Assembly: GCA_903879715.1 (NCBI GenBank) | Contig: CAIRMR010000154.1 | Span: forward strand, 21,376 to 85,375 | Direction of reading: 5' to 3' | Length of the DNA: 64,000 bases | DNA from: an uncultured Bacteroidales bacterium | GTDB taxonomy: Bacteria; Bacteroidota; Bacteroidia; Bacteroidales; UBA4417 | Shown here: piece after piece, positions 3,868 to 25,346 of the stretch | Position numbering within the stretch: the stretch's first letter is position 1 | How the letters are laid out: the number at the start of each line of letters is the position of its first letter | Made by a program: the position numbers and the translations under genes | The notes under the pieces: model-generated | Database searches by the model: none | What the model saw: the letters and a program-made list of their open reading frames with translations, nothing else | What the model was told of the DNA's origin: nothing

Positions 3868-3948
3868 AATGGCAGTAAGAAGGGGCGAGGAGCGACAGGG
3901 CGACTTCGTTCGGTGCAGGCAAGGAGATGGAAGAAAACTAACAGGGTG

Positions 3949-3976
3949 CTTCCGACTCCCGACTTCTGACTTCCGG
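3949..3976. repeat. Four phased heptamers: cttccga ctcccga cttctga cttccgg
   Basis: Read directly from the sequence. The array is preceded by cagggtg. A related array lies at 11149-11169, preceded by cagggca. Confidence 0.7.
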
Positions 3977-3994
3977 CCAAAATAAAATAACCCA

Positions 3995-5776: not shown

Positions 5777-5840
5777 AGAAATTGAGAAATCTGATACATA
5801 GATCATTTTTACCCCTTTTATGCATGAGTCTTCACTGAAA

Positions 5841-5926
5841 CACAAAAGAAACAAAAGTTTTAACTAACCCAATTCTCTTTTGTGTCTTTTGTGGTTAATA
5901 CTTTTATACACATAAAGAAACAAAAG
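5841..5926. repeat. ACAAAAG-unit hairpin plus a third direct copy
   Basis: cacaaaagaaacaaaag (5841-5857) pairs with cttttgtgtcttttgtg (5877-5893), giving 17 bp with 1 mismatch and a 19-nt loop. The direct copy cataaagaaacaaaag lies at 5911-5926. Confidence 0.7.
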
Positions 5927-5942
5927 CTCAATAAAATCTGAT

Positions 5943-8603
5943 TTGAACCTCGGAAAAACAATATACCGGATTCTGATTACCTGCCTGCTTTTAATAGTGG
6001 CCTCGGTTACTTTTGCCCAAAACCTGGATAATAAAATTTCTATCCGGACTAAAAATAAGCCACTTGGAGAAGTAATTGAACAAATCAGCGAAAAAGGGAA
6101 TATCCTGTTCTCATTTAACCCACAATCAATCCCTATCAATAAAAAAATCACTGTAATTGCGCGGAATACTTCTCTGTCGAAGATTTTTGAAATGGTTTTT
6201 ACTGCCAATGGAATCGATTATACGCTTTCGGAAAAACAGGTGATTTTGAAGCTTGCCAAACAGGAAACTCTTCCAAAACCTGACCTGGCAGTAAAACAAC
6301 TCCGCAAATATACCATCAGCGGAACCATCAGGGATAAAGCTACCGGAGAGGTTATTTTCGGTGCCAATGTGTATGATATTGCTTCGATGCAAGGCACCAC
6401 AAGTAACGCTTATGGGTTTTACTCCCTTACATTACCGATGGGCGAATACAGCATTACAAATTCCTATATTGGTTATTCTCCTGTTTCACAGGCCGTAAAC
6501 CTGATTAAAAATATAAATGCCACGATTGACCTTGAACTTTCGGCTATCGAAATGAATACGGTTGTTATAACTTCTGATCCTGACGCAGAGACAAAACATC
6601 TGAATCAAACGGGAGATATGCATTTTTCGCCCGCAGTGCTAAAACAGATTCCGGGATTTGCCGGCAATGTGGATGTTCTCAAGTCGCTGCAGAATGTCCC
6701 GGGAATTCTTACGTTCGGCGATGGATCTTCATTTTACTATGTGCGTGGTGGTAACAGTGATCAGAATCTTTTGCTGATCGACGAAGCGCCGATTTACAAT
6801 CCTTCACACCTGTTTGGTTTCTTTTCGGCCCTGGCTCCCGATGCCATCAAAGATGTGGTGGTTTACAAAGGCGATTTCCCGGCGAATTATGGCGGAAGGC
6901 TTTCGTCGGTGGTTGATATGCGTGCCAGGGAAGGCAATATGAAACGGCTTGGCTTTTCAGGTAACCTCGGACCGTACACAACTGACCTTACACTGGAAGG
7001 GCCCATTTTGAAAGAGAAAAGTTCATTCCTGATTTCGAGCCGTATTTCGAACCTGAACTGGTTAAAATTCCTTGATGATGGAGACCGTACCTATAAATTT
7101 AATTTTTACGATATCAACGCCAAACTCAATGTACGGCTCAATGACAATAACCGGCTTTTTCTCACGGCTTTCAAAGGTAATGATGAGTTTAACCGATATA
7201 ATAGTTTGAATACTAACACATTTGGAATCAGCTGGAAAAATGTTGCCAGCACCTTGCGATGGAATCATGTTTTTAACAGCCGCTTTTTCTCAAATACAAC
7301 AGCTTACATCAGCCGGTATAACTATTATCTTGATCTCTCGAAAGAACTCAATACGTACTGGACATCCTCCATTTCAAATGCGACTATCAAAACGGATTTT
7401 TCCTGGTTTCTGAATCCCAAAAACACGATTAAAACCGGTTTTGAGATCAACGGGCATAAGAGCAATCCCGGAAAATTGTATTTCACGAATGACGAAATTC
7501 CTGCAAGCCTGGCACAATATCAATCTACTGAATTAGCCATATACGCGAGTAATGAACAACAACTTGGGCAAAAGTTTCTTGCGCGTTATGGTCTCAGGAT
7601 TTCCCGATGGAACGATCTTGGTCCAACATCAGTTTACTTTTTTGATGGCAATCACAATGTAATTGACACAATTAAAGTTGCTAAAAATACGGTTTACAAA
7701 AGCTTTCTGAACTTTGAGCCACGTATCAGCCTGAACTTTGCCATCAGCGAAAACTCATCACTTCATGCCAATTACAACCATAATGTTCAGCATTTGCAGG
7801 TATTAAGTAACTCTACAAGCCCTTTTACTTCACTCGATGTATGGATTCCGAGCGGGCCAAATATAGCACCACAGAAAGCGGATCAGTTTTCACTCGGCTA
7901 TTTCAGCAAAATATTCCAACGTCAATTTGATTTCTCCGTCGAAGGGTATTACAAACGGCTTTATAACCAGGTAGATTATAAGGATCATCCCAACATGCTG
8001 ATAAATAAGCTGATTGAAGGTGAACTCAGGTTTGGTGATGGCTGGTCGTATGGCATTGAAACATTGCTGCGCAAAAACAAAGGGAAATTCACCGGCTGGA
8101 TAAGTTATGCGTGGTCGCGGTCGATGAAGCAGATTGCGGATGTAAATGAGGGGAAAATCTTTCCGGCTGCTCACGACAGGCCTCATAATTTCTGCATTAC
8201 TTTATCCTATACAACCGGCAAACACTGGAGTTTTTCGACGCATTGGATGTATCTCACAGGAGCTCCGTTTAGTTCGCCAACTGGGTTTTATTATGTAAAC
8301 GGCTATTCGGTGCCAGTGTATGGCGAAAAGAATAACGACAGGCTTCCCGATTATCACCGAATGGATTTATCTGTTTCGTATGCGCTAAGTAAGCCGGAAA
8401 AAAGATTTCAGCACAACCTGGTACTCACAATATATAACGCTTACGGAAGACACAATCCCTTCTCAATAAATTTTAACAAAACACAGGATGATAATGAAAA
8501 TATTGTAGTTCCGGCTAATCTCGAAGGTGATGTTGATCGTATCATAACTTCGATGTCTGTTGCCGGAGCGATCCCATCACTTAACTATACTTTCCGTTTC
8601 TGA
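5943..8603 (+). CDS. TonB-dependent receptor with N-terminal STN signalling domain and carboxypeptidase-regulatory-like domain
   Basis: 886 aa with a TTG start and a signal peptide. It has an STN-like segment (ISIRTKNKPLGEVIEQISEKGNILFSF...), a CarbopepD_reg-like segment (ISGTIRDKATGEVIFGANVY), a plug and barrel, and a C-terminal aromatic residue (YTFRF). Confidence 0.9.
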   Translation: MNLGKTIYRILITCLLLIVASVTFAQNLDNKISIRTKNKPLGEVIEQISEKGNILFSFNPQSIPINKKITVIARNTSLSKIFEMVFTANGIDYTLSEKQVILKLAKQETLPKPDLAVKQLRKYTISGTIRDKATGEVIFGANVYDIASMQGTTSNAYGFYSLTLPMGEYSITNSYIGYSPVSQAVNLIKNINATIDLELSAIEMNTVVITSDPDAETKHLNQTGDMHFSPAVLKQIPGFAGNVDVLKSLQNVPGILTFGDGSSFYYVRGGNSDQNLLLIDEAPIYNPSHLFGFFSALAPDAIKDVVVYKGDFPANYGGRLSSVVDMRAREGNMKRLGFSGNLGPYTTDLTLEGPILKEKSSFLISSRISNLNWLKFLDDGDRTYKFNFYDINAKLNVRLNDNNRLFLTAFKGNDEFNRYNSLNTNTFGISWKNVASTLRWNHVFNSRFFSNTTAYISRYNYYLDLSKELNTYWTSSISNATIKTDFSWFLNPKNTIKTGFEINGHKSNPGKLYFTNDEIPASLAQYQSTELAIYASNEQQLGQKFLARYGLRISRWNDLGPTSVYFFDGNHNVIDTIKVAKNTVYKSFLNFEPRISLNFAISENSSLHANYNHNVQHLQVLSNSTSPFTSLDVWIPSGPNIAPQKADQFSLGYFSKIFQRQFDFSVEGYYKRLYNQVDYKDHPNMLINKLIEGELRFGDGWSYGIETLLRKNKGKFTGWISYAWSRSMKQIADVNEGKIFPAAHDRPHNFCITLSYTTGKHWSFSTHWMYLTGAPFSSPTGFYYVNGYSVPVYGEKNNDRLPDYHRMDLSVSYALSKPEKRFQHNLVLTIYNAYGRHNPFSINFNKTQDDNENIVVPANLEGDVDRIITSMSVAGAIPSLNYTFRF

Positions 8604-10627: not shown

Positions 10628-10990
10628 ATGAAAATAATCGGACAAATCCTGATTGCAATAATTGCGCTGGAGCATTTATATTTCCTTTGGCTTGAAATGT
10701 TTGCCTGGGAAACCAAAGGAAAGGATGTATTTAAGATGCTTCCTCAAAACCTGTTTAAGCCTACCAAAGTTCTGGCGGCTAACCAGGGACTTTACAACGG
10801 TTTCCTGGCCGCCGGGCTGATATGGCCATTATTCATTACCAATGATTTGTGGAGTTTTTATATTTCCGTTTTCTTCCTGAGTTGCGTTAGTATTGCAGGC
10901 ATTTATGGCGCGTTAACAGCCTCGAAAAGGATCTTTATTGTACAGGCTTTACCGGCAATTATAACTTTGGTTTTGATTCATTTTAGATAA
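10628..10990 (+). CDS. DUF1304 family membrane protein
   Basis: 120 aa with 4 TM segments and the signature LAANQGLYNGFLAAGL. Confidence 0.8.
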   Translation: MKIIGQILIAIIALEHLYFLWLEMFAWETKGKDVFKMLPQNLFKPTKVLAANQGLYNGFLAAGLIWPLFITNDLWSFYISVFFLSCVSIAGIYGALTASKRIFIVQALPAIITLVLIHFR

Positions 10991-11148
10991 GGGGTTCTTC
11001 TGCGAAGTGAATGGAATTATTTTTTACTGGTCCTAAGACCGAAGTAACCAGCTTGCTGTAATATACCAACTGATAATACTAAGTTGGAAGCTATTAATTA
11101 TCATACGACATGGTGCTTTATTCAAAGGATAAAGTAGTATTCAGGGCA

Positions 11149-11169
11149 CTTCCGACTTCCGACAACTCC
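11149..11169. repeat. Phased heptamers: cttccga cttccga caactcc
   Basis: Read directly from the sequence. The array is preceded by cagggca and is related to 3949-3976. Confidence 0.6.
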
Positions 11170-11230
11170 GGTTGAACCACTAAATTTACAGCAGACCCAA
11201 ATATTTTTTGCCCACGTTAATTATTTTTCC

Positions 11231-11238
11231 TACTTTTG
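11231..11238 (+). promoter_or_regulatory. Candidate his operon -7 box (TAnnTTTG)
   Basis: tacttttg lies 18 nt upstream of the leader ATG. A TTTG lies about 22 nt further upstream (11206-11209). Confidence 0.5.
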
Positions 11239-11256
11239 CATCATCAAACTAAAAAA

Positions 11257-11313
11257 ATGAACTTTAACCAATTACACCATCATCATCTGCATACCATCTC
11301 AGGCATGGAGTAA
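11257..11313 (+). CDS. Histidine operon leader peptide, MNFNQLHHHHLHTISGME
   Basis: 18 codons, with 5 His in 6 consecutive codons (CAC CAT CAT CAT CTG CAT). It sits between the promoter box and a strong terminator, directly upstream of hisG. Confidence 0.65.
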   Translation: MNFNQLHHHHLHTISGME

Positions 11314-11342
11314 GTGATATTTGTAATTTGTAAAATATTTCG

Positions 11343-11378
11343 AAACCCGTCTGAGTAAACAGCCGGGTTTTTTGTTTT
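11343..11378 (+). terminator. Intrinsic terminator (attenuator) between the leader peptide and hisG
   Basis: aaacccg (11343-11349) pairs with cgggttt (11364-11370), extendable with one mismatch (cccgtctg/cagccggg). It is followed by ttttgtttt. Confidence 0.65.
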
Positions 11379-11421
11379 AACTCCCTTCGCATCGTTTACT
11401 CAGCATTAACAAACAAAAAGC

Positions 11422-12279
11422 ATGAGTAAATTAAAAATTGCAATTCAGAAATCAGGCCGGCTTAGTGAAAAATCGCTGGAACTCTTAAAAGAGTGCGGCA
11501 TCAAACTCTCAAATGGCGACCGCAAGCTAAAAACAGAAGCAAAAAATTTCCCCATCGAAGTACTTTTCCTTCGCGACGACGATATTCCTCAATATGTGGA
11601 ACAAGGCGTGGCGGATATTGGCATTTTGGGCGAGAACGAAGTGTGGGAGAAACATAAGGATGTGACCACCGTCGAAAAACTGGGATTTGCCAACTGCAAA
11701 CTTTCATTAGCCATTCCTAGAGATGAAAAGTATACCGGTTTAGCTTACTTCAACAACAAAAGGATAGCAACCAGCTATCCTAAAATTCTGCAAAAATTTT
11801 TCGATGAGAAAAACATCCGGGTCGAAATTGAAGAAATCGGCGGAAGCGTGGAAATTGCAACTGGTATTGGTTTGGCTGACGCCATTTTTGATATCGTAAG
11901 CACCGGCAGCACATTAGTGATGAATGGACTGAAAGAAGCAGAAGTCGTTTTTAAGAGCGAAGCTGTTTTGATTTCCAACAAAAACCTGGACACTGAAAAA
12001 CAACAAATCCTTGACAAGCTTCTTTTCAGAATTAAAGCCGTAAGGAACTCGTCCGAAAATAAATACATCCTGCTCAACGCTCCGAACAGTTCCATCGCAC
12101 AGATTTCTGCTATTTTACCGGGCATGAAATCACCAACTGTTTTACCCCTGGCTGAAGAAGGCTGGAGCAGCATTCACTCGGTAGTAAAGGAAGATCAATT
12201 CTGGGATATTATTGACCAGCTTCAGGCTCTGGGTGCCCAGGGAATCCTTGTAATTCCGATTGAGAAGATGGTCCTCTAA
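11422..12279 (+). CDS. hisG: ATP phosphoribosyltransferase (long form)
   Basis: 285 aa that matches the HisG long form as I recall the family. It is the first gene of the his operon. Confidence 0.95.
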   Translation: MSKLKIAIQKSGRLSEKSLELLKECGIKLSNGDRKLKTEAKNFPIEVLFLRDDDIPQYVEQGVADIGILGENEVWEKHKDVTTVEKLGFANCKLSLAIPRDEKYTGLAYFNNKRIATSYPKILQKFFDEKNIRVEIEEIGGSVEIATGIGLADAIFDIVSTGSTLVMNGLKEAEVVFKSEAVLISNKNLDTEKQQILDKLLFRIKAVRNSSENKYILLNAPNSSIAQISAILPGMKSPTVLPLAEEGWSSIHSVVKEDQFWDIIDQLQALGAQGILVIPIEKMVL

Positions 12280-12354
12280 TCCCGACTTCAAGGTCGGTGC
12301 TCAGACCTCGAATCATCCCTCAACCCCGACCTTCAGTTCGGGGCCTAAGACCCC
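12278..12354. repeat. Two ~32-nt direct repeats, each containing a short hairpin, in the hisG-hisD spacer
   Basis: aatcccgacttcaaggtcggtgctcagacctc (12278-12309) versus aaccccgaccttcagttcggggcctaagacccc (12322-12354). They are roughly three-quarters identical with one indel. The internal stems are ccgac/gtcgg and ccccga/tcgggg. Confidence 0.55.
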
Positions 12355-12359
12355 CAAAT

Positions 12360-13643
12360 ATGGAAAAATATATAAATCCAAACAAAAAAAACTGGCAAAA
12401 ACTCACTCAAAGGCCAACAGCCGAACAACTGTCCCTCGACGGAATAGTAAGCCAGGTCTTTTCGGAAATTCGAAAAGACGGTGATAAGGCTGTAAGGAAA
12501 TTCAGTCTTCTCTTCGACAAAGTTGAGCTGGAATCGTTTGCTATACCTCAAAAAGCAATTGAAGCTGCTTCGGTAAAAGTACCTGCTGGGCTGAAAGCCG
12601 CTATCCAATTGGCAAAAAGCAATATTGAAAAGTTCCATGCTGCACAAATCGAAACTCCGAAAATAATTGAAACCACCAAAGGTGTAGAATGCTGGCGCGA
12701 AAGCCGTGGAATTGAAACCGTTGGGATTTATATTCCGGGCGGAACGGCTCCATTGTTTTCGACTGTTCTGATGCTGGGTATTCCGGCTAAACTGGCCGGT
12801 TGCAAAAATATTATTCTTTGCACGCCGCCTGATAAAAACGGGGAAATCAACCCGGCTATTCTATACACAGCCGATCTTGTGGGAATTACTTCAGTTTTTA
12901 GTGTTGGCGGAATTCAAGCCGTTGCAGCTATGGCTTTTGGCACTGAAAGTATTCCCAAAGTGAATAAGATTTTTGGCCCCGGGAACCAATATGTAACAGC
13001 AGCTAAACAGGCTGCTCAGCAATTAGGCGTAGCTATCGATATGCCGGCCGGTCCAAGCGAAGTGCTGATAATTGCTGATAAAAGCTGTAACCCTGCGTTT
13101 GTGGCAGCAGATCTCCTTTCGCAAGCCGAACATGGAGCCGACAGCCAGGTAATTTTGCTTTCAGATAATGAAACTCTTATTGACAAGATACTTTCAGAAT
13201 TAGAACAACAGTTGGAAGCGTTGCCACGAAAGGAGATTGCTGCGAAAGCGTTGGAAAACAGCAAAGCCATTCTTCTGGAAGACATAAACGAATGTATTGA
13301 ATTCAGCAACAGTTATGCTCCTGAACACCTGATTCTGGCTGTAAAAGAAGCTAGAAATCTGATCCCTCAAATTTCAAAAGCAGGTTCCGTATTCCTTGGA
13401 AACTATAGTTGTGAAAGCGCCGGCGATTATGCCAGCGGAACCAATCACACCTTGCCGACAAACGGGTATGCACGAAGTTACAGCGGAGTTTCACTCGATA
13501 GTTTTGTTACCAAAATCACATTCCAGGAATTATCGAAAGAAGGCATCCGGAATATCGGCCCTTCCATTGAACTTATGGCCGAAGCGGAACAGTTGTTTGC
13601 ACATAAAAATGCAGTAACATTGAGATTGACGAAGTACGATTGA
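12360..13643 (+). CDS. hisD: Histidinol dehydrogenase
   Basis: HisD-like throughout, with a conserved SQAEHG motif. I prefer the ATG at 12360 (MEKYINPNKK). The 21 upstream codons in the ORF track are a translation of the spacer repeat. Confidence 0.95.
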   Translation: MEKYINPNKKNWQKLTQRPTAEQLSLDGIVSQVFSEIRKDGDKAVRKFSLLFDKVELESFAIPQKAIEAASVKVPAGLKAAIQLAKSNIEKFHAAQIETPKIIETTKGVECWRESRGIETVGIYIPGGTAPLFSTVLMLGIPAKLAGCKNIILCTPPDKNGEINPAILYTADLVGITSVFSVGGIQAVAAMAFGTESIPKVNKIFGPGNQYVTAAKQAAQQLGVAIDMPAGPSEVLIIADKSCNPAFVAADLLSQAEHGADSQVILLSDNETLIDKILSELEQQLEALPRKEIAAKALENSKAILLEDINECIEFSNSYAPEHLILAVKEARNLIPQISKAGSVFLGNYSCESAGDYASGTNHTLPTNGYARSYSGVSLDSFVTKITFQELSKEGIRNIGPSIELMAEAEQLFAHKNAVTLRLTKYD

Positions 13644-13891
13644 CGAAGTACGATTGACGAATGACGAAATGAGATTGACGAAGTATGATTGACGATGTAC
13701 GATGTACGATGTACGAACGACGATGTACGATTGACGATGTACGATTGACGATGTACGATTGACGATGTACGATTTACGATTGACGATGTACGAATGATGA
13801 TGTACGATTGACGATGTACGATGTACGAACGACGATGTACGATTGACGATGTACGATGTACGAACGACGATTAACGATTAACGAATAACGA
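13619..13891 (+). repeat. Tandem array of 38 phased heptamers (consensus T-K-K-A-C-G-A) plus one degenerate leading unit
   Basis: Hand-phased from 13626 to 13891 without any phase slip. The units are ttgacga, tgtacga, agtacga, acgacga, ttaacga and minor variants. The first three units encode the last hisD codons and its TGA stop. Confidence 0.95.
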
Positions 13892-13929
13892 TTGGCCGAA
13901 AATCGATTTTGAACATTAATTAAAGCATC

Positions 13930-14958
13930 ATGCAAAAATCAGAAATTATAAACCTTGTTCGCAAGAACATCATTTCATTGAAACCATACTCCAGCGCCCG
14001 TGATGAGTTTTCGGGTACAGACGGTGTGTTTTTAGATGCTAACGAAAATCCGTTTGGCGAACTGAACCGATATCCTGATCCTCACCAGAAAGAATTGAAA
14101 TCAAAGTTGTGCGAAATAAAATCAATTCCCTTTGAAACTATTTTTGTTGGCAATGGCAGCGACGAAGTGATTGATCTTACATTCCGCATTTTCTGCAATC
14201 CCAGAAAGGATAAAGCCCTTACCTTTACTCCAACCTACGGAATGTACGAAGTTTCGGCTGAAATTAATGAGGTGGAATTGATCAAAGTGCCTTTGACTTC
14301 TGAATTTCAGATAGATTTTAATGCATTAGAAAATTACTTGTCGGATGAAAATCTGAAGCTGATCTTTATCTGTTCGCCAAATAATCCAACAGCCAACAGC
14401 CTTGAAAATATTGAGAAAGTGCTTCAAAAATTTAAAGGAATAGTGATTGTGGACGAAGCGTATATTGATTTCAGCAAAGCCAGTTCTTTTCTCACTAAAA
14501 TTGATCAGTATCCGAACCTGATTGTTATGCAAACATTCAGCAAAGCCTGGGGATTGGCTGCCGCACGGGTCGGAATGGCCTATTCGAACGATTTGATTAT
14601 TTCGTTATACAACAAAGTTAAGCCACCTTATAATGTTAGTGATCCTAATCAGAAAGCAGCATTAAAAGCTTTGGAAGATGCTGACGGATTTGAGAAAAGA
14701 AAGTCCGTCATCCTGGAGCAAAGAACCTGGCTTCAGAATCAATTGGTCGAATTAGATGTTGTAATAAAGATATATCCCTCGGATGCGAATTTCCTGTTGG
14801 TTGAAATGACGGATGCCAACCGGATTTACAATGAACTTGTTAATCAGAAAGTTATTACCCGGAACAGGAATAGTGTAGTTCAGAATTGTATCCGGATAAC
14901 GGTTGGAAGTCCTGAGGAAAACCAAATACTGGTTGATGCTTTGAAAAAAATAAAATAA
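13930..14958 (+). CDS. hisC: Histidinol-phosphate aminotransferase
   Basis: 342 aa with the class-II aminotransferase pattern, including the PLP-lysine context (QTFSKAWGLA). Confidence 0.95.
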   Translation: MQKSEIINLVRKNIISLKPYSSARDEFSGTDGVFLDANENPFGELNRYPDPHQKELKSKLCEIKSIPFETIFVGNGSDEVIDLTFRIFCNPRKDKALTFTPTYGMYEVSAEINEVELIKVPLTSEFQIDFNALENYLSDENLKLIFICSPNNPTANSLENIEKVLQKFKGIVIVDEAYIDFSKASSFLTKIDQYPNLIVMQTFSKAWGLAAARVGMAYSNDLIISLYNKVKPPYNVSDPNQKAALKALEDADGFEKRKSVILEQRTWLQNQLVELDVVIKIYPSDANFLLVEMTDANRIYNELVNQKVITRNRNSVVQNCIRITVGSPEENQILVDALKKIK

Positions 14959-15078
14959 ACCACGGAGGCACAGAGAACACGGAGAAACACAGAGGAATTC
15001 TCAGAAAAAGTTAAAAGTTATTTTCAAATAAACAGTTTAATCTCTGTGAACCTCTGTGCCCTCCGTGTCTCCGTGGTT
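14958..15078. repeat. Imperfect palindrome built from inverted arrays of CAC(A/G)GAG units (hisC-hisB spacer)
   Basis: The left arm is aaccacggaggcacagagaacacggagaaacacagagg (14958-14995). The right arm is tctctgtgaacctctgtgccctccgtgtctccgtggtt (15041-15078). The outer 10 nt aaccacggag/ctccgtggtt are exact complements. The spacer is 45 nt and AT-rich. Confidence 0.9.
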
Positions 15079-15094
15079 AACAAATAAATCAATA

Positions 15095-16189
15095 ATGATG
15101 AAGAAAGTTTTATTTATAGACAGAGATGGCACCCTGGTTATTGAACCGCCCATCGATTTTCAGCTGGACAGCCTGGAGAAACTGGAGTTTTATCCCGGCG
15201 TCTTCCAATGGCTTTCGCGGATTGCACAGGAGCTCGATTACGAGTTGGTGATGGTTACCAACCAGGATGGACTTGGAACGACGGCTTTCCCTACGGAAAC
15301 TTTCTGGCCGGCCCAGGACAAAATCGTAAAGGCTTTCAAAAACGAAGGAATTCTGTTTTCTGAGATCGTGATTGATAAATCGTTTCCCCACGAAAACCTC
15401 CCGACCCGGAAACCAGGAACCGCCTTGTTAACTCATTATGTCAAAGGCAGCTACAATTTACCAGAATCGTTTGTAATCGGAGATCGTTTAACGGATGTGC
15501 AATTGGCCAAAAACCTCGGTAGTAAAGCCATTTATATGGGTACTGATGCTTGCGATGATGCTGATTTAAACACAACAAGCTGGGCTGATATTTACCAGCT
15601 TCTGAAATCAGAACCCAGAAAAGCAAAGATTGTCCGTAAAACTTCCGAAACCAATATCGAAATTGAACTCAACCTGGATGGATCGGGTAAGAGTTCCATT
15701 TCAACCGGGCTGGGCTTTTTCGACCATATGCTGGAACAGATTTCCAGGCATGGAAATATGGATTTAAATATCCAGGTGAAAGGCGATTTGCATATCGATG
15801 AACACCATACCATCGAAGATGTGGCCATTGCACTTGGTGAAGCTTTTATAAAAGCTTTGGGAAGCAAAAAAGGAATTGAACGATATGGTTTTCTGTTGCC
15901 TATGGACGATTGCCTGGCACAGGTGGCTATTGATTTTGGAGGCCGCCCCTGGCTGGTTTGGGACGCAGAATTCAAACGTGAAAAAATAGGTGAGATGCCT
16001 GCCGAAATGTTCTTTCACTTCTTTAAATCCTTCAGCGATAATGCCAAATGTAACCTGAATATCATGGCCGAAGGAAACAACGAACACCATAAGATCGAAG
16101 CCATTTTCAAGGCATTTGCCAAAGCAATCCGCATGGCAGTAAGCAAAACAGGTAATTTTTCGATTCCCAGCACGAAGGGGAGTTTATAA
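15095..16189 (+). CDS. hisB: Bifunctional histidinol-phosphatase / imidazoleglycerol-phosphate dehydratase
   Basis: HAD motif (FIDRDGT) at the N-terminus and an IGPD domain with His-rich motifs ([16 protein letters not shown]). I prefer the ATG at 15095. The ORF-track extension is a translation of the palindrome arm. Confidence 0.95.
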
Positions 16190-16195
16190 TTGAAA

Positions 16196-16251
16196 GAAGT
16201 AAGTTGTAAGGCATAAGAAGTAAGTTGTAAGGTATAAGTCGTAGAGTAAGA
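16196..16251 (+). repeat. Eight phased heptamers (TAAGNNN family), left flank of the four-helix-bundle gene
   Basis: gaagtaa gttgtaa ggcataa gaagtaa gttgtaa ggtataa gtcgtag agtaaga. This is also a 21-nt repeat present about 2.6 times. Confidence 0.9.
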
Positions 16252-16294
16252 ATTATGGAATAATTTTTTCAATCAATACTTAAAACTCAATATC

Positions 16295-16669
16295 ATGGAA
16301 AAAACACATTCATTTAAAGACCTGATAGTTTGGCAAAAAGCACATCAATTGGTAATTGCTATCTATAAAGCAACCAAACTATTCCCAAAAGAAGAAGTCT
16401 TTTCTTTAACTAACCAGGTAAGAAGAGCTGCTGTATCAATTCCTGCAGATATTTGTGAAGGATATAAAAAGAAGACTATTCCTAATCAATTGAATTTCAT
16501 CAACATTGCCGAAGGCTCTTTGGAAGAAGTGAAATATTATATCATTTTATCAAAAGACTTACAATACATTGATGAGAGTGCATACGAACAATTAACTAAT
16601 TCTGCCGAAGAAGTCGGAAGATTAATAAACGGTTATGAAAAAGCTATATCGAAGCGCCTTACTACTTAA
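16295..16669 (+). CDS. Four-helix-bundle protein (23S rRNA intervening-sequence protein family, PF05635/TIGR02436-like)
   Basis: 124 aa with the characteristic N-terminus (FKDLIVWQKAHQLVIAIYKATKLFPKEE..SLTNQVRRAAVSIPANI-like, EGSLEEVKYY). It is inserted between hisB and hisH. Confidence 0.85.
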   Translation: MEKTHSFKDLIVWQKAHQLVIAIYKATKLFPKEEVFSLTNQVRRAAVSIPADICEGYKKKTIPNQLNFINIAEGSLEEVKYYIILSKDLQYIDESAYEQLTNSAEEVGRLINGYEKAISKRLTT

Positions 16670-16689
16670 ACCTTACATCTTATACCTTA
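16655..16689 (-). repeat. Five phased heptamers of the same TAAGNNN family in inverted orientation, right flank of the four-helix-bundle gene
   Basis: On the plus strand: cgcctta ctactta aacctta catctta tacctta. The reverse complement reads taaggta taagatg taaggtt taagtag taaggcg. It shares the 11-nt exact segment taaggtataag with the left array. It overlaps the last codons and stop of the 4HB ORF and ends 4 nt before the hisH ATG. Confidence 0.85.
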
Positions 16690-16693
16690 ACAG

Positions 16694-17275
16694 ATGCAAA
16701 TCGCAATTATAAAATACAATGCAGGCAATATAAAATCTGTTGAAAACGCAGTCAAAAGATTGGGGTACGATTGTATAGTTACCGACAATCCGGAGCTTAT
16801 CAGAAACGCCGAAAAAGTTATATTCCCCGGCGTTGGCGAAGCAAGTTCGGCCATGCAATATTTAAAAAAACACCACCTGGATAGTCTGATCAAATCTTTA
16901 ACACAACCAACGCTCGGAATTTGCCTAGGTCAGCAGTTAATGTGCAAATATTCTGAAGAAAATGATACCGATTGCTTAGGCATCTTTGATGCAGACGTAA
17001 AAAAATTCCCACCTGAAGAACTGGTTCCGCATATGGGATGGAATAACATTGAAAACCTGAAAAGCGCTTTATTTAATGGAATCAGCGATGAGGATAATGT
17101 TTATTTCGTGCACAGCTATTATGCTGAACTGAGCCAAGAAACCATAGCTACATGCCAGTATATTCTGCCTTTCAGCGCTGCCATGCAGAAGGACAATTTC
17201 TACGCAACCCAGTTTCATCCTGAAAAATCAGCCTGGGTTGGTGAACGGATCTTAAAAAACTTTTTAGAATTATGA
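16694..17275 (+). CDS. hisH: Imidazole glycerol phosphate synthase, glutamine amidotransferase subunit
   Basis: 193 aa with the GATase-1 Cys context (LGICLGQQL) and a C-terminal FHPEKS motif. Confidence 0.95.
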
Positions 17276-17985
17276 GAATTATTCCCGCAATAGATATAAT
17301 TGGTGGAAAGTGCGTCAGGCTTAGTAAAGGCGACTATTCCACAAAAAAAATATACAACGAAAGCCCTTTGGAAGTCGCCAAGGAATTTGAGGCCAATGGA
17401 ATTCAATTTCTGCACGTTGTGGATCTGGATGGAGCAAAATCGAACCATATTGTCAACTTCAAAGTTTTACACGAGATTGCCACCAAAACCAAACTGAAAG
17501 TCGATTTTGGCGGCGGGCTGAAAAGCAACGAAGACCTGAAAATTGCTTTCGAAAACGGAGCATCGCAGATTACAGGAGGAAGCATTGCCGTTAAAAATCC
17601 TGATCTTTTTCAGGAATGGCTTGCTATTTATGGGTCAGAAAAGATTATCCTCGGAGCCGATTGCATCGACAGGAAAATCGCCACTCATGGCTGGCTCGAA
17701 ACTTCTTCACTGGATGTAGTTGATTTTATCCTCGATTTTGAAGCGAAAGGCGTTCAATATGTTATTTGCACCGATATTTCGAAGGATGGTATGCTGGAGG
17801 GAACTTCAAACGAACTGTATGTTGAAATAATGGATAAAACCAAAATCAAACTGATTGCCAGCGGCGGGGTTACCTCAATTGAAGATGTCGAAAAGTTAAT
17901 TGAGATGGGTTGCGAAGGAGCCATTATCGGTAAAGCCATTTACGAGCAGAAAATAACACTGAAAGAATTAAGAAGATTATGCTGA
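17272..17985 (+). CDS. hisA: ProFAR isomerase
   Basis: 237 aa. [15 protein letters not shown] at the N-terminus is typical of HisA. It overlaps hisH by 4 nt. Confidence 0.95.
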
Positions 17986-18737
17986 AAAAACGAATCATTC
18001 CCTGCCTCGATATCCGTGATGGACGAACTGTAAAGGGAATCAACTTTATTGATATCCGCGATGCCGGCGATCCGGTTGAACTGGCAAAACGTTATGTACA
18101 GGAAGGGGCCGACGAGCTGGTGTTCCTGGATATTACTGCCACGCACGAAAACCGCAAAACACTTTCAGCCCTGGTTGAGAAAATTTCCAGGGAAATCAAT
18201 ATTCCGTTTACTGTGGGTGGTGGAATCAACTCGCTGGCTGATGTTTCTGTAATTATTAAAGCTGGTGCCGATAAAGTAAGCATCAATTCATCCGCTGTAA
18301 AACGTCCTGAACTTATCACTGAAATTGCCGAGCAATTTGGCAGCCAGTGTGTGGTAGTAGCCATCGATACAAAATTCGTGAACAACGAATGGATCGTTTA
18401 TGTGCATGGTGGCAGAATTCCTACCTTACTCAAAACGATGGATTGGGTAAAACAGGTTGAAGAACTTGGAGCGGGCGAAATCTTACTTACTTCAATGAAC
18501 AACGATGGCATGAAAACCGGCTTTGCACTTGATATTACCAACGCAGTAAGCCAGGCAGTTAATATCCCTGTCATCGCTTCGGGCGGAGCAGGAACAAAGG
18601 AACATTTCAAGGAAGTTTTCAGTCAAACCAAAGCAAGTGCGGCCCTGGCTGCCAGCATTTTCCACTTCGGCGAAATCCCTATCCCCGATTTAAAAAACTA
18701 TTTACAAACCGAAAAAATACCTGTACGATGCTTATAG
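17979..18737 (+). CDS. hisF: Imidazole glycerol phosphate synthase, cyclase subunit
   Basis: 252 aa with [16 protein letters not shown] and [10 protein letters not shown] motifs. Confidence 0.95.
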
Positions 18738-19327
18738 ATTTCAGTAAAACTAACGGTTTAGTGCCGGTAATAATTCAGAATTATCAAAACCAGCAGGTTC
18801 TGATGCTTGGATATATGAATGAGGAAGCATTCGCAAAAACCCGGTCGGAAGGAAAGGTTACTTTTTTCAGCCGCAGCAAAAACAGGCTCTGGACAAAGGG
18901 CGAAACTTCGGGTAATTTCCTGATTGTGAAAGACATTCTTGTAGATTGCGATAATGATACCATCCTGATAAAAGCAGATCCTATCGGTCCAACCTGCCAC
19001 ACCGGGTCAACCACCTGTTTTAAAGACGAAACTGCAAAAGGGTTTTTATATGAGTTAGAGCAAACCATTCATCAACGTATAGATGAAAATGATGTGGATT
19101 CATACACCAATAAACTCTTCCGCAAAGGCATTAATAAAGTAGCCCAAAAAGTCGGTGAAGAAGCTGTTGAACTGGTAATTGAAGCCAAGGACGACAACGA
19201 AGATCTCTTTAAAAACGAAGCCGCCGACCTGCTTTATCACCTGCTGATTTTACTGAAAACAAAGAACGTAAAACTGGAAGATGTAGAACTTGTTTTAAAA
19301 AACAGGGTAAATCTGCCGCGGAGGTAA
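18728..19327 (+). CDS. hisIE: Bifunctional phosphoribosyl-AMP cyclohydrolase / phosphoribosyl-ATP pyrophosphatase
   Basis: 199 aa with an N-terminal HisI domain ([25 protein letters not shown]) and a C-terminal HisE domain ([26 protein letters not shown]). Confidence 0.95.
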
Positions 19328-19746
19328 AATTGCGATTTCATCATATTCTGAATATGTGTAAACTTACTACGCTTTCCCTCTAAAGATTTTTGTTATAAAG
19401 AATCCCGTATTCTATTAAAATTCATTGGGCCGGCAAACTGAAAGAAATCGTAATCCTGAGGAATATATAATTATCAGATAAGTTTTAAAAACTTCCAGGC
19501 GATTTCTTGTTTTGCATATCCTGCATGCATTCAATAAAAATTTGTAATCAGTTGTCGATGTGCCGGTTTAGGTTTTAAGAAACTGAGCCTGGATGGATAC
19601 AAACATGTTTGAGAATTAATTATGTTTAAAAGAATAAAAACAGGAAGAGTGTTGTAACTTTGGAATGAACATAGGAGCGGAATTAATTGTAAGCATATTC
19701 CGATGGCAGGGCTGATATGAAGTTATAAACTTTAAATTTTAGTCTT

Positions 19747-22473
19747 ATGAAACTGTATACTCTATTGATGGCAATTATATTTTTAATTGTTTCCGGCAAA
19801 GTTTTCTCCCACACCATTGTTGTAACAAATAGTAATGATAGTATCACCGGCTCTCTCAGAGATGCCATCAATAAAGCACAAAGCGGAGATACAATCAGGT
19901 TTGATAAGAGCCTGACTGAGATTAATTTAGGGGAACAAATTAATATCTATAAATCTATAACCATCTCTGGCAATCCTGGTTTGCTTATCCACGATAACCG
20001 ATGGGGTAGTACATCCACCTTAGTTCGCCGTTTTTTTGAAATAAAAGGTTCGGATTCAATTGTTGTCAATATAAATGACTTAAAGTTCGGAAAAAAGAAA
20101 CAAGACCTTGGTTTAGATACCATTAATAAGGATGGACAAATCATATTAATAGAAAACATTAAATCAACCGTAAATATTAAATTCTGCTATTTTGAGCCAG
20201 AACATTACTCTTTCATTGGAAGCATTCGTTGTTTTTATGCCCCCAATGGATCGCTTATGAGTGTGAATGGTAAAAATGGAGGAGCCATAGCGCAATATGG
20301 AGGGGATTTAAATATTTCAAACAGTACGTTTTCACAACTTGTAGCCGGGAATAGCTCCTATTGGGGAGCTGGAGGGGCAATTTGTCAATTTGGAGGTAAA
20401 TTGAAATTGGTAAATTGTACTTTTTATAAAAATTCAGCAGGTGTTAACTCCTGCGGCCACTTTTTGGGTGTTGGCTCAGCAATATATTCACAGAAAAGTA
20501 TTGTTTCTATTACAAATTGTACCTTTTGTGAACATCCTACCGATAATTTTTATATGCCTGTTCCGACTCCCTCAAATCCATACCCTAGTCCTGTGACTTC
20601 AACAACTTATACTATCATACTTGACAGTTCAGATTTAGTAATTAAGAATTCTATTTTTTACAATAATGATGGCAGAGATTTGGCTGGAGATGTAAATAGC
20701 ACATTCCGTTCAGGAGGATATAATATTTTTGACCAGACACTTTCTGTTAATGACGGCGCCTCTCCGACTGATCAGTTCAACTGTAATCCTGGTTTTATTC
20801 TGAAGAAATTTTGTGATGCCCCATATTGTAATACCGGGGTCGTTTTGTCAAGCAATACATTTTGGATACCTGTTTGCGCCCTTGATGCTGCCGGTCCCGC
20901 AATAGATGCCTTACCCTCCGATGGAAACGGAGCCCCTTTATACGACCAAAGAGGCCATGCACGGATTAACACGCCAGATATTGGCGCTTACGAATTTGAA
21001 GGCTGCATCCCGGCCGTAATGAAAGCAAAATGGAACACCACCAAATTTGGACAGAATTCATGGGCTTTCGATATAAGCGTAGTAGATGATAATGTTGTTT
21101 GGGTAAAGGACGCCAATTCGGATAGTATTTCAGTTACAACAAACGGTGGTGCTTCGTGGATAACAAAACCATTGCCCGTAATAGCCGGTTATATAAGAAC
21201 AGCAGGTGGAATTTGTGCTTTAAGTGATGTGAATGCTTACTATATTTTATCGTTAAGTGATGCGAAAGGAATATATATGACCACGGATGGAGGTAATACC
21301 TGGAATAAACAAACTACCGCTTTTACTGAAAGTAATTCATTCCCTGATGTTATTCATTTTTGGAATGAAAATGAAGGCGTTGCCATTGGTGATGCTTTAC
21401 CGAATTTCGAAATCTATACAACCTCAAATGGTGGAACACAATGGAATCGTGTACCTGATGCCAATATGCCCAATGGCAATACTGAAGGCACCTGGAATAG
21501 CCAGGGAGCTTATAAAGTTGTTGGTACTTCAATATTTTTTATCACCAGTTCGGCACGTATATTTAAATCTGTTGATAAGGGGAAAACATGGAGTGTAACT
21601 AATACGCCTTTTCATAATTCGGCAGATTCCACAATCACTTTCGATTTTAAAGATAATACTAATGGTTTAGTATCTTATTGTTCAAACGACGGCCTTCATC
21701 ATAAAATTTACAAAACAACCAATGGCGGACTAACCTGGGATAGCATCTCTACTTCAAATTTTTATCAGCGGATGAAGTATATTCCGGCTGCAAATGCTTA
21801 TTTCAGCATGAATATAAATGGCGGACTTTCCTATTCATGCGATGATGGTCAAACCTGGACAAGCGTTTCTTACTATAATGGAATAAAACTTCGAACTGTG
21901 GATTATTCCGTTAATGGTAAAATATTCTGGGGAGGGTTAGGATATATTTATTACTCTTCGCCTGTTCTGGCAATTTCTCCATATAATCTGACAATTGCTG
22001 CCCCGGCAAACAGTACCCAGACATTTACTATTGAATCGACTACAGACTGGTTCGTAGCAAGTAATCAAACCTGGTTAGCAGTCAGCAGCAGCACAGGTAG
22101 CGGGAATTCAACAATAATAGTAACTGTGGCAGCAAACCCAGTGGCAGCGTCAAGAACTGCCACCATTACAGTTTCAGGAACCGGAGTAGCAACCCAAACC
22201 ATAACTGTCACCCAACAAGGCATAAGTACAAGCCTGCCAGCCATTGCAGAAAAGGATTTTTTAATTTATCCTAATCCGGCAGGTTCAGTTTTGTATTTCA
22301 GTTCCAAAGCTGAAACCACTCGGATTTCTATTTTTGATATATATGGCAAACTGGTTTTAGATCAGAAAGTTAACAGTGATCAGATTGATATAGGCAATTT
22401 GCGAAATGGCGTTTATACCATCAAAATCAGAAACCCGAAAGGAATTGTTACGAAGAAATTTATAAAGCAATAG
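19747..22473 (+). CDS. Multidomain T9SS cargo protein: beta-helix region, BNR/Ycf48-like propeller repeats, BACON domain, T9SS C-terminal sorting domain
   Basis: 908 aa with a signal peptide. It carries repeated xTxGGxTW motifs (TTNGGASW, TTDGGNTW, TSNGGTQW, VDKGKTW, TTNGGLTW, CDDGQTW), a BACON-like segment (TDWFVASNQTWLAVSSSTGSGNSTIIVTVAANPVAASRTATITVSG), and a C-terminal domain (YPNPAGSVLYF...GVYTIKI). Confidence 0.85.
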   Translation: MKLYTLLMAIIFLIVSGKVFSHTIVVTNSNDSITGSLRDAINKAQSGDTIRFDKSLTEINLGEQINIYKSITISGNPGLLIHDNRWGSTSTLVRRFFEIKGSDSIVVNINDLKFGKKKQDLGLDTINKDGQIILIENIKSTVNIKFCYFEPEHYSFIGSIRCFYAPNGSLMSVNGKNGGAIAQYGGDLNISNSTFSQLVAGNSSYWGAGGAICQFGGKLKLVNCTFYKNSAGVNSCGHFLGVGSAIYSQKSIVSITNCTFCEHPTDNFYMPVPTPSNPYPSPVTSTTYTIILDSSDLVIKNSIFYNNDGRDLAGDVNSTFRSGGYNIFDQTLSVNDGASPTDQFNCNPGFILKKFCDAPYCNTGVVLSSNTFWIPVCALDAAGPAIDALPSDGNGAPLYDQRGHARINTPDIGAYEFEGCIPAVMKAKWNTTKFGQNSWAFDISVVDDNVVWVKDANSDSISVTTNGGASWITKPLPVIAGYIRTAGGICALSDVNAYYILSLSDAKGIYMTTDGGNTWNKQTTAFTESNSFPDVIHFWNENEGVAIGDALPNFEIYTTSNGGTQWNRVPDANMPNGNTEGTWNSQGAYKVVGTSIFFITSSARIFKSVDKGKTWSVTNTPFHNSADSTITFDFKDNTNGLVSYCSNDGLHHKIYKTTNGGLTWDSISTSNFYQRMKYIPAANAYFSMNINGGLSYSCDDGQTWTSVSYYNGIKLRTVDYSVNGKIFWGGLGYIYYSSPVLAISPYNLTIAAPANSTQTFTIESTTDWFVASNQTWLAVSSSTGSGNSTIIVTVAANPVAASRTATITVSGTGVATQTITVTQQGISTSLPAIAEKDFLIYPNPAGSVLYFSSKAETTRISIFDIYGKLVLDQKVNSDQIDIGNLRNGVYTIKIRNPKGIVTKKFIKQ

Positions 22474-24645: not shown

Positions 24646-25218
24646 CTATTTTTGCTTATTTCTTACATCCATTCGTGCCTGCGACATACGTTCGCGTAAG
24701 CCGCCTTCCTCCAAAAATTCTTTTTCCAGGGTTTTAATTTGCTGTGCAAGCAGGTAAGAAGTTACATTTATCAAACTTATTAAAACATTTGCTGAAACTT
24801 CAGGATCGGGACTTTCAATTCCTTTTCTGTACGTTTCGTAAGTGGCGTCAGGTATTTTGTGTTTTAGGGTAAGTTTTGGATAATAGGGATGTGATTTGTC
24901 CCAATATGTCAGTTTGTTGTTTCGCAAATAATCTTTGTAGTCAATCAACAATTCCTCTAATGATGCTCGTGCAACATTGGTGAGTTTTATTTCCATTTCC
25001 TTTGAAGTGCCGGAAGCCATACTGGCCTCTGCGATATTCTGTTTCCCTGAACGGGCTGCCTGTACCATTTGATCAATGGTTCGGTCGTATGGGTGAAAGT
25101 ATTTTTTAGTGAAATATTTCGTTCCGTCAAATATTATTTCTGCTTTCTGGTAGGTTATCAAACGTTCGTAACCTCCATATTTGGGAATAAATCCATCGGG
25201 GTTGTATTGTTTGCCCAT
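24646..25218 (-). CDS. Four-helix-bundle protein with C-terminal suffix domain (TIGR02436 plus TIGR04258-like)
   Basis: 190 aa. The motifs DQMVQAARSGKQNIAEAS and ARASLEELLIDYKDYL are typical of this subfamily as I recall it. Confidence 0.7.
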   Translation of the reverse strand: MGKQYNPDGFIPKYGGYERLITYQKAEIIFDGTKYFTKKYFHPYDRTIDQMVQAARSGKQNIAEASMASGTSKEMEIKLTNVARASLEELLIDYKDYLRNNKLTYWDKSHPYYPKLTLKHKIPDATYETYRKGIESPDPEVSANVLISLINVTSYLLAQQIKTLEKEFLEEGGLRERMSQARMDVRNKQK

Positions 25219-25268
25219 GGGTGTTCTATTTAATTATTACACTCTTGTTTATTTCGGGGGACAATCAA

Positions 25269-25303
25269 GACAATTAAGACAGTGAATCACTGTCTTAATT
25301 GTC
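25269..25303 (-). terminator. Perfect 16-bp hairpin built on AGACAAT-type units, between recJ and the 4HB-suffix gene
   Basis: gacaattaagacagtg / cactgtcttaattgtc with a 3-nt loop. It is preceded by the direct units gacaatca agacaatt aagacagt. Confidence 0.55.
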
Positions 25304-25346
25304 ACCAAAGTCGTCATAAATTAAAGATAACATTAAAACCACCCTA

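Follow-up and report, generated by a model that had tools for sequence, protein, structure and literature searches.

In the survey of prokaryotic genomes by Mrazek et al. (2007), heptanucleotides are the most frequent class of long simple repeat in most genomes, and such long simple sequence repeats (LSSRs) are, as that survey is relayed in PMC4679880, mostly non-coding, with polymerase slippage as the proposed cause (Mrazek, Guo and Shah 2007). MacGregor (2015; PMC4679880) described direct TAACTGA heptamers in Beggiatoaceae, Cyanobacteria and five Bacteroidetes, which are intergenic, lie mostly forward to the downstream gene and in some cases overlap the end of the upstream open reading frame (ORF). 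The same paper reports heptamer arrays from several Bacteroidetes and Cyanobacteria that reach 43 copies, and it notes that TAACTGA repeats of close relatives or strains differ by 7-nt indels and that their function is unknown. Here we consider an array of 38 heptamers between the histidine biosynthesis genes hisD and hisC in a 64-kb stretch of DNA from an uncultured Bacteroidales bacterium (contig CAIRMR010000154.1; hereafter the window). The array is probably a hypervariable heptanucleotide repeat, that is, a variable number tandem repeat (VNTR) and LSSR, that sits passively in the spacer between the two cistrons.

The hisD-hisC array is like the LSSRs in having head-to-tail 7-nt units, a length far beyond chance and copy changes by whole units, but its TKKACGA family is not among the units described, and it begins in the last codons of a gene, inside a biosynthetic operon. 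With the TAACTGA repeats it shares the intergenic position, the direct and forward arrangement, the overlap with an upstream ORF's end and the 7-nt indels between relatives, while the unit sequence is another one; TAACTGA is absent among the 11 unit types of the array. In 'Maribeggiatoa', TAACTGA occurs in 2-6 copies that mostly end a few nucleotides from a start codon (PMC4679880), whereas the hisD-hisC array has 38 units and ends 38 nt before hisC.

The array and the end of hisD

The array occupies positions 13626..13891 of the forward strand, and its 38 units of the TKKACGA family follow one another head-to-tail in a 7-nt phase free of indels. It is preceded by a degenerate unit 0, ATTGAGA (13619..13625, forward strand), which codes for a conserved L-R of the HisD C-terminus and forms the left anchor. 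An earlier reading made from the sequence alone had reported 38 units phased without a slip and one degenerate unit before them, and rephasing gave the same result. That reading had also called ACGA nearly invariant, and 34 of the 38 units do end in exactly these letters; the departures include AATGAGA, AGTATGA and ATGATGA, and positions 6 and 7 of the unit do not vary at all across the window's 38 units. The 11 unit types comprise TGTACGA (14 copies), TTGACGA (11), ACGACGA (3), AGTACGA and TTAACGA (2 each) and six singletons, and the array as a whole is 34% A, 27% G, 25% T and 14% C. There is order above the level of the unit: the block TGTACGA TGTACGA ACGACGA TGTACGA TTGACGA at 13703-13737 recurs at 13815-13849, its first three units are present again at 13850-13870, as had been noticed before, and duplications of 35 and 49 nt are found, with Tandem Repeats Finder (TRF) superperiods of 14, 21, 35 and 49 nt, each a multiple of 7. 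Nothing interrupts the array between hisD and the hisC leader, and it contains neither an ORF for a four-helix-bundle protein nor an AT-rich loop.

All units point the same way. The pattern ACGA-N3-ACGA-N3-ACGA has 28 matches in the window, every one of them on the forward strand and within the array, against an expectation of 0.00 from 100 shuffles, and the two-unit pattern has a single stray match beyond the array, at 7485, and none on the reverse strand. An inverted-repeat search of the window returned nothing involving 13619-13891, and no TCGT-phased partner was seen. Because the pattern scans of the reverse strand and this search are empty, the array has no inverted partner in the window, in agreement with the sequence-only reading, and the ACGA family is represented by this one locus in the 64 kb.

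The gene hisD (12360..13643, forward strand) encodes a histidinol dehydrogenase of 427 aa from the called ATG (Pfam PF00815, E = 3.9e-167). Its 3' end reads TTG ACG AAG TAC GAT TGA, and the translation accordingly closes ...AVTLRLTKYD*, with the TGA stop (13641..13643, forward strand) lying within unit 3, a TTGACGA. The array thus contributes the stop and the last five sense codons; six codons besides the TGA had been claimed, and of that claim the TGA and the repeat-derived C-terminus LTKYD stand. The Pfam match extends to residue 444 in a reading frame of 448, which makes the repeat-derived residues a tail at the extreme end of the domain. On its other side the array is bounded by a unique 38-nt hisC leader (13892..13929, forward strand) that contains a small palindrome, AAAATCGATTTT, and is followed by hisC itself (13930..14958, forward strand; histidinol-phosphate aminotransferase, Pfam PF00155, E = 8.5e-62). 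The hisD stop and the hisC start are therefore 286 untranslated nucleotides apart. Close translational coupling of the two genes is ruled out by this gap, which is the only effect of the array that is certain.

The operon has the order hisG, hisD, array, hisC, hisB, a four-helix-bundle gene, hisH, hisA, hisF and hisIE. Upstream of hisG, at 11257-11379, there is a classical his attenuator: an ORF for a his leader peptide, MNFNQLHHHHLHTISGME, in which five of six codons specify His, comes before a stem AACCCG...CGGGTT and a T-run. The leader peptide is kept in six relatives (MNFxxLHHHH...). The hisG-hisD spacer (12281-12342) contains an inverted repeat, CCCGACTTCAAGGTCGG... / ...CCGACCTTCAGTTCGGG, with a modest fold (z = -1.6).

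A long repeat in a short-read assembly invites the suspicion that a short repeat was collapsed or over-extended, and an artefact had been named beforehand as an outcome that would undo the case. An independent Logan assembly of ERR4222574 has exactly the same hisD and hisC but is interrupted at either edge of the array: one of its contigs stops 9 nt past the hisD stop and the other begins 88 nt before hisC. The 266-nt interior, and with it the exact count of 38, accordingly rests on one short-read contig of 86 kb; the exact 427-aa HisD product is also on record on an 86-kb contig. However, the edges of the Logan contigs are identical to the window, and two independent related assemblies, JGI 3300010965 and GCA_030654075.1, hold 33 and 30 units at the same site, each in an order of its own. 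Long arrays at hisD-hisC are therefore genuine, and an artefact is barely credible as their explanation.

Copy number in related genomes

Relatives were reached through HisD matches and through near-identical copies of the four-helix-bundle protein from the same operon. The top HisD matches (81-84% identity) belong to uncultured Bacteroidales and Lentimicrobiaceae metagenome-assembled genomes, and the neighbourhood is typical of Bacteroidota, with an extracytoplasmic function (ECF) sigma/FecR pair, a SusC-like TonB receptor and a protein with a type IX secretion system (T9SS) tail; the host is an uncultured Bacteroidales/Lentimicrobiaceae-like bacterium. The nearest relative in the comparison, which is one between related genomes, is L203, with 95% nt identity in hisD and 33 units. 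L204 (hisD, 86% nt identity) has 30 units, L005, L205, L001 and L002 (hisC, about 80% nt identity each) have 10, 6, 6 and 4, L214 (hisC, about 82% nt identity) has 3, and in L216/L217, where hisD and hisC are 1 nt apart, there are none. The suggestion of a slippage-prone VNTR had come with the advice to compare unit number across related genomes, and the series 38, 33, 30, 10, 6, 6, 4, 3, 0 bears it out: both the number and the order of units shift between genomes in whole 7-nt steps.

What the spacers of the ACGA family have in common is an anchor in the last hisD codons (xxTGCGA TTGACGA ...) from which the 7-nt phase is kept, and a counterpart of unit 0, either xxTGCGA or xCTxCGA, is found in all relatives. 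Beyond the anchor, the order of units differs from genome to genome, with local amplification of 14-nt dimers. The L203 array closes with a run of ATAACGA, and that of L204 is built from amplified dimers such as TTGACAA-AGTACGA and ATGAAGA-TTGACGA. L203 has an identical 38-nt hisC leader; in the other genomes, L204, L205 and L001 among them, this leader cannot be aligned, though array units are common to them. In the more distant L006 (HisD, 76% identity) only a proto-repeat is present, CGATTAAATGATGTGGATTGA, with GATTNA twice, 14 nt apart. Given the shared units, phase and anchor and the varying counts, the array behaves as a VNTR grown from a proto-repeat at the 3' end of hisD. The array had been credited with supplying the hisD stop, which is correct, but this is not special to the long array: in relatives with 3-6 units HisD already ends with the GAT TGA of a TTGACGA unit, and the array-supplied stop is thus ancestral. 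In two distant Bacteroidota, hisD likewise enters a heptamer array that supplies its stop, although the units are unrelated (GATAAAT/GATGAAT at 7264-7375 of L025, ATTAGAG at 7260-7400 of L059), and L059 has an extra xxxACGA run further along its hisD spacer. Periods of 7, 14, 21, 28 or 49 were found in 58 of the 120 TRF clusters in the loci of the lineage.

The array probably arose from a short proto-repeat in the last hisD codons, through replication slippage and unequal exchange. The ancestral form may have been ...CGA TTG ACG AAT GAA GAT TGA CGA..., with GATTGA twice, 14 nt apart, and the expanding array would then have been a passive passenger of the his operon transcript, in its hisD-hisC spacer. 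Such growth may be tolerated for several reasons. Because every TTGACGA unit has a TGA, HisD would end within a few codons however the array slips, and because units 1-2 are identical to units 3-4, slippage by a 14-nt dimer would leave its C-terminus unchanged; TGA occurs in all three forward frames of the array, within about 20 codons of any point. The array RNA would also be harmless in being unstructured and lacking a terminator, and hisC has its own unique leader of 38 nt. This account of tolerance is partly observed and partly inferred.

Possible roles in RNA and DNA

An alternative is that the array acts in the transcript. The array RNA, (UUGACGAUGUACGA)n, would be a cis-acting platform offering up to 38 evenly spaced ACGA motifs to a single-strand RNA-binding protein that reads a 7-nt register, such as a cold-shock or S1-type protein with an OB fold, or the pentameric four-helix-bundle protein whose gene lies 2.4 kb downstream. 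Once bound, the protein would act on the hisC-distal part of the operon by tuning its stability, processing or translation. We regard this possibility as unlikely. The RNA is certainly accessible, in that it folds no better than its shuffles (z = -0.10) and presents ACGA every 7 nt, and cold-shock (Csp), S1 and CsrA proteins have been proposed as readers of the TAACTGA heptamers (PMC4679880). However, relatives that share the operon have anything from 0 to 38 units, and the 30 ORFs of the 64-kb window that were scanned against Pfam include no TRAP, HutP, cold-shock domain (CSD) or S1 protein. No terminator-like site (GC-rich stem and U tract) was found in 13600-13930, and Rfam at permissive thresholds over 10900-19800 placed nothing on the array, its only matches being chance ones to miRNA precursors on the hisC-hisB hairpin described below. 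The sequence-only reading had favoured a platform for a multimeric regulator in particular, which we do not uphold: a copy number of 3 to 38 does not suit an oligomer of fixed symmetry, and there is neither structure nor an Rfam family nor, as follows, a significantly protected core.

Constraint on the core was assessed in 130 units pooled from eight genomes. Conservation is 91-100% at positions 4-7 and 48-63% at positions 1-3, a gap that mostly reflects the presence of three old major unit types. When each minor unit type is counted once against its nearest major type, there are 17 changes in the triplet (positions 1-3) against 13 in the core (positions 4-7), where a ratio of 3:4 is expected, so the core is not significantly protected relative to the triplet (p = 0.14), and the commonest core change is G-to-A at the CpG, which gives ACAA. 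Variable copy number and a core without significant protection argue against a sequence-specific function.

TRAP and HutP are oligomeric RNA-binding attenuation proteins that read spaced motifs. TRAP binds 11 GAG/UAG triplets and HutP binds UAG-N4-UAG-N4-UAG, with a period of 7, and in both cases the number of motifs is fixed, is matched to the oligomer and lies in a 5' leader next to a terminator. The array is like these sites in having an evenly spaced short core in an unstructured stretch of an amino-acid operon transcript, with the period of HutP. It differs from them in that its length varies from 0 to 38 units, its position is intercistronic, and neither a terminator nor a TRAP or HutP gene accompanies it in the regions scanned.

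Arrays of this family are widespread. Five phased ACGA units were matched in at least 120 metagenome contigs, with GC contents from 23% to 74% and all kinds of variable triplet. Among the matches listed, to which the metagenome figures that follow also refer, unit types include TTGACGA, AGTACGA/TGTACGA and ATAACGA, many arrays sit between a stop and the following start as at hisD-hisC, and the 164 NNNACGA arrays have a median length of 6 units and a maximum of 24, although short-read assemblies break at long arrays and so under-sample them. Strand was counted with arrays masked, from crude ORF calls, for arrays without an inverted partner between co-directional genes; apparent distances at which an array touches a start codon proved to be an artefact of the mask boundary, where ORFs abut masked arrays, and were left out.

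Several of these results sit badly with a passive VNTR. It is the sense strand that carries the arrays in 22 contigs and the antisense strand in 5, and a hand-picked stricter subset (GC < 0.55, flanking ORFs of at least 150 aa) gives 9 and 2; absence of strand bias had been set down as a result that would count against function, and the bias that is present is suggestive, though it derives from crude ORF calls. DNA slippage alone does not predict it. Three lineages hold at least 30 units at hisD-hisC, which is above all 164 of the metagenome arrays. Position 7 of the unit, an A, is constant in 130 of 130 units. Finally, TTGACGA, AGTACGA, TGTACGA and ATGACGA persist where the unique sequence next to them has diverged beyond alignment. 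This persistence speaks for an RNA platform and could reflect constraint, but it could equally reflect re-seeding from a first unit that is held in place by the L-R coding sequence.

A role at the level of DNA, as a recombination hot spot, an array of sites for a nucleoid or other DNA-binding protein, or an internal promoter, appears highly improbable. In its favour, TTGACG-N17-TACGAT, which matches the sigma-70 consensus at 9 of 12 positions, occurs at six sites within 13626-13808 that derive from the 14-nt dimer. Primary promoters of Bacteroidota, however, have other consensus hexamers (TTTG and TAnnTTTG), and the matches are therefore probably a by-product of the unit sequence. A function in genome rearrangement has been suggested for very long heptamer arrays (PMC4679880), but all relatives have the same genes in the same order around the array, which gives no hint of rearrangement here. 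The reverse strand of the array is nearly open to translation, and its sole ORF (13774-13935, 53 aa, TTG start) overlaps the start of hisC and was judged non-coding.

Hairpin cassettes and described systems

The array is not the only heptamer-based element in the operon. All three his spacers from hisD to hisH contain one, and although the sequences are unrelated the period is always 7. Between hisB and hisH, at 16295-16669, lies a gene for a four-helix-bundle protein of 124 aa ('23S rRNA IVS protein', where IVS stands for intervening sequence; PF05635/TIGR02436). It is flanked by inverted heptamer arms of the GTAAGTT/CCTTACA type (element 16190-16695), which read GTAAGTT GTAAGGC ATAAGAA ... 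on the left and CCTTACT ACTTAAA CCTTACA ... on the right and have a predicted duplex energy of -30 kcal/mol. The right arm begins in the last codons of the gene and supplies its stop, and the arms gain or lose whole heptamers among relatives (e.g. L206 and L216). The hisC-hisB spacer (14958-15078) contains a strong hairpin with CACGGAG/CACAGAG arms (-51 kcal/mol, z = -7.96). In its place L203 has another hairpin, with GGAAGTC arms and termini near GGCTGG...CCAGCC, L005 has what by eye appears to be a TAACGA-armed hairpin, and L002 has none. Since the type of hairpin differs among close relatives, these elements move or are exchanged. Moreover, in L206/L207 (an interleaved lineage; hisC, 85% nt identity), L003, L004 and L008 the hisD-hisC spacer holds a hairpin instead of the ACGA array, with GGAAGTC/GGAAGAC arms and, again, termini near GGCTGG...CCAGCC.

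It is possible, then, that the array is the solo and overgrown arm of an IVS-like hairpin cassette, in which two inverted heptamer arrays surround a four-helix-bundle gene or a short AT-rich loop, and that the array expanded after its partner was lost. The two elements downstream in the same operon, the replacement of the array by a hairpin in some relatives, the difference in hairpin type between the window and L203 and the apparent TAACGA arms in L005 all point in this direction, as does a 59% GC soil contig, L140, in which a four-helix-bundle gene stands between five copies of TTGACGA and seven of TCGTCAA (positions 1-610). A decayed cassette arm had been among the earlier suggestions, and as a lead it is real: the array is built on the same principle as the cassettes. 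Its second arm is nevertheless missing in every genome examined: the window lacks an inverted partner, and among the seven other relatives that bear the array no spacer shows an evident one. The arms of cassettes comprise 3-9 units, compared with 30-38 in the long ACGA arrays, and the anchor of the array in hisD codons together with the proto-repeat of L006 fits local birth better than insertion. We consider an origin from a cassette quite improbable.

The four-helix-bundle genes are of wider interest in this context. With a profile that includes the L140 gene, we found 11 distinct genes (12 ORF matches) in 202 loci, and 9-10 of the 11 are flanked by short tandem-repeat arms in the loci fetched. 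In L093 (590-2860), direct ACAACGA arrays occupy successive intergenic spacers, and one pair of them encloses a four-helix-bundle gene. The first hidden Markov model for the protein, built from four seeds, missed the L140 gene, so the count of such genes near ACGA arrays, 4 of about 120 contigs, is a lower bound. The PDB homologues 2gsc and 2rld contain five chains per entry, and the homologue Avd reportedly works in a complex with RNA and reverse transcriptase. These repeat-flanked genes, the inverted TTGACGA of L140 and the direct ACAACGA of L093 among them, and the five-chain structures, as well as the Avd complex, also count in favour of the RNA platform. What counts against it is that the constant feature of the neighbouring arrays is the period of 7 and not a motif: the heptamers found at hisD-hisC or in neighbouring spacers (GGAAGTC, CACGGAG, GTAAGTT, GATAAAT, ATTAGAG) are unrelated. 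A correlation between a long array and the four-helix-bundle gene of the operon was set aside on account of biased sampling and shared ancestry.

Further elements of this kind occur elsewhere in the window. Heptamer runs of CTTCCGA/ACTTCCG, kin to the GGAAGTC hairpin arms of relatives, are found at 3868-3985, where the fold is weak (z = -0.96) and the whole looks like a decayed element, and at 11130-11170, with a solo run (11148-11163) upstream of the his leader. On the reverse strand, at 24646-25218, an ORF of 190 aa has a sub-threshold match to PF05635 (E = 7e-5) and lies beside a 38-nt near-palindrome with 9-nt repeats at 25248-25324, and 24646-25324 may be a second, divergent cassette. Intergenic hairpins at 1333-1447 and 5838-5896 have arms made of short tandem repeats of period 9, AAATCTGTG and TCTTTTGTG.

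A broader reading would make heptamer arrays, including that at hisD-hisC, the cis part of an undescribed family built around pentameric four-helix-bundle (Avd-like) genes, with the direct ACGA array as a solo arm or as a landing or binding platform for such a protein. This is a long shot, but if true it would link intergenic heptamer repeats to rRNA intervening sequences. Taken together, the functional and element-related readings claim roughly a third of our confidence, and they stay alive through the bias toward the sense strand, the persistence of unit types and the way in which arrays accompany four-helix-bundle genes. We infer that slippage generated the array and that it lacks a sequence-specific function; any role would be modest at most. 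Taken alone, the locus is of minor importance. It is a tidy heptanucleotide VNTR, firmly anchored, in a housekeeping operon and potentially a good strain marker, and it is a warning for annotation and assembly, since contigs break there and the C-terminus of HisD is repeat-derived. The wider interest lies in his spacers occupied by period-7 elements, in hairpins that are exchanged and in four-helix-bundle genes that stand between arrays in distant phyla. Should this association prove causal, one would gain a handle on why 7 nt is preferred in long bacterial repeats and on what the very abundant four-helix-bundle proteins do.

Among described elements, the closest counterpart of the neighbouring cassettes is the intervening sequence of 23S rRNA with its S23p ORF (e.g. 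in Coxiella), which is regarded as a selfish element and is excised by RNase III (PMC4990558). The elements beside the array resemble it in being stems with or without a PF05635 ORF in a transcribed region, and their arms are built of heptamers, as the array is. They differ in lying in mRNA spacers rather than in rRNA, and the array, lacking a complementary arm, is unable to form the defining stem. No literature was found that links IVS or four-helix-bundle genes to heptamer repeats.

The array is similar in form to the short tandemly repeated repetitive (STRR) sequences of heterocystous cyanobacteria, which are intergenic tandem arrays of heptamers with several unrelated unit sequences per genome. 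The phylum and the units are different, however, and genome-wide dispersal of the ACGA family is without evidence, with one locus in 64 kb. The contingency loci of Haemophilus and Moraxella, to the extent that they are covered in PMC4679880, are also slippage-prone repeats of variable copy number, but in the array a change in unit number shifts no reading frame and no promoter spacing. The array is thus of a kind already known from the heptanucleotide tandem repeats of Bacteroidota and cyanobacteria, and it is this locus and its unit family that are new.

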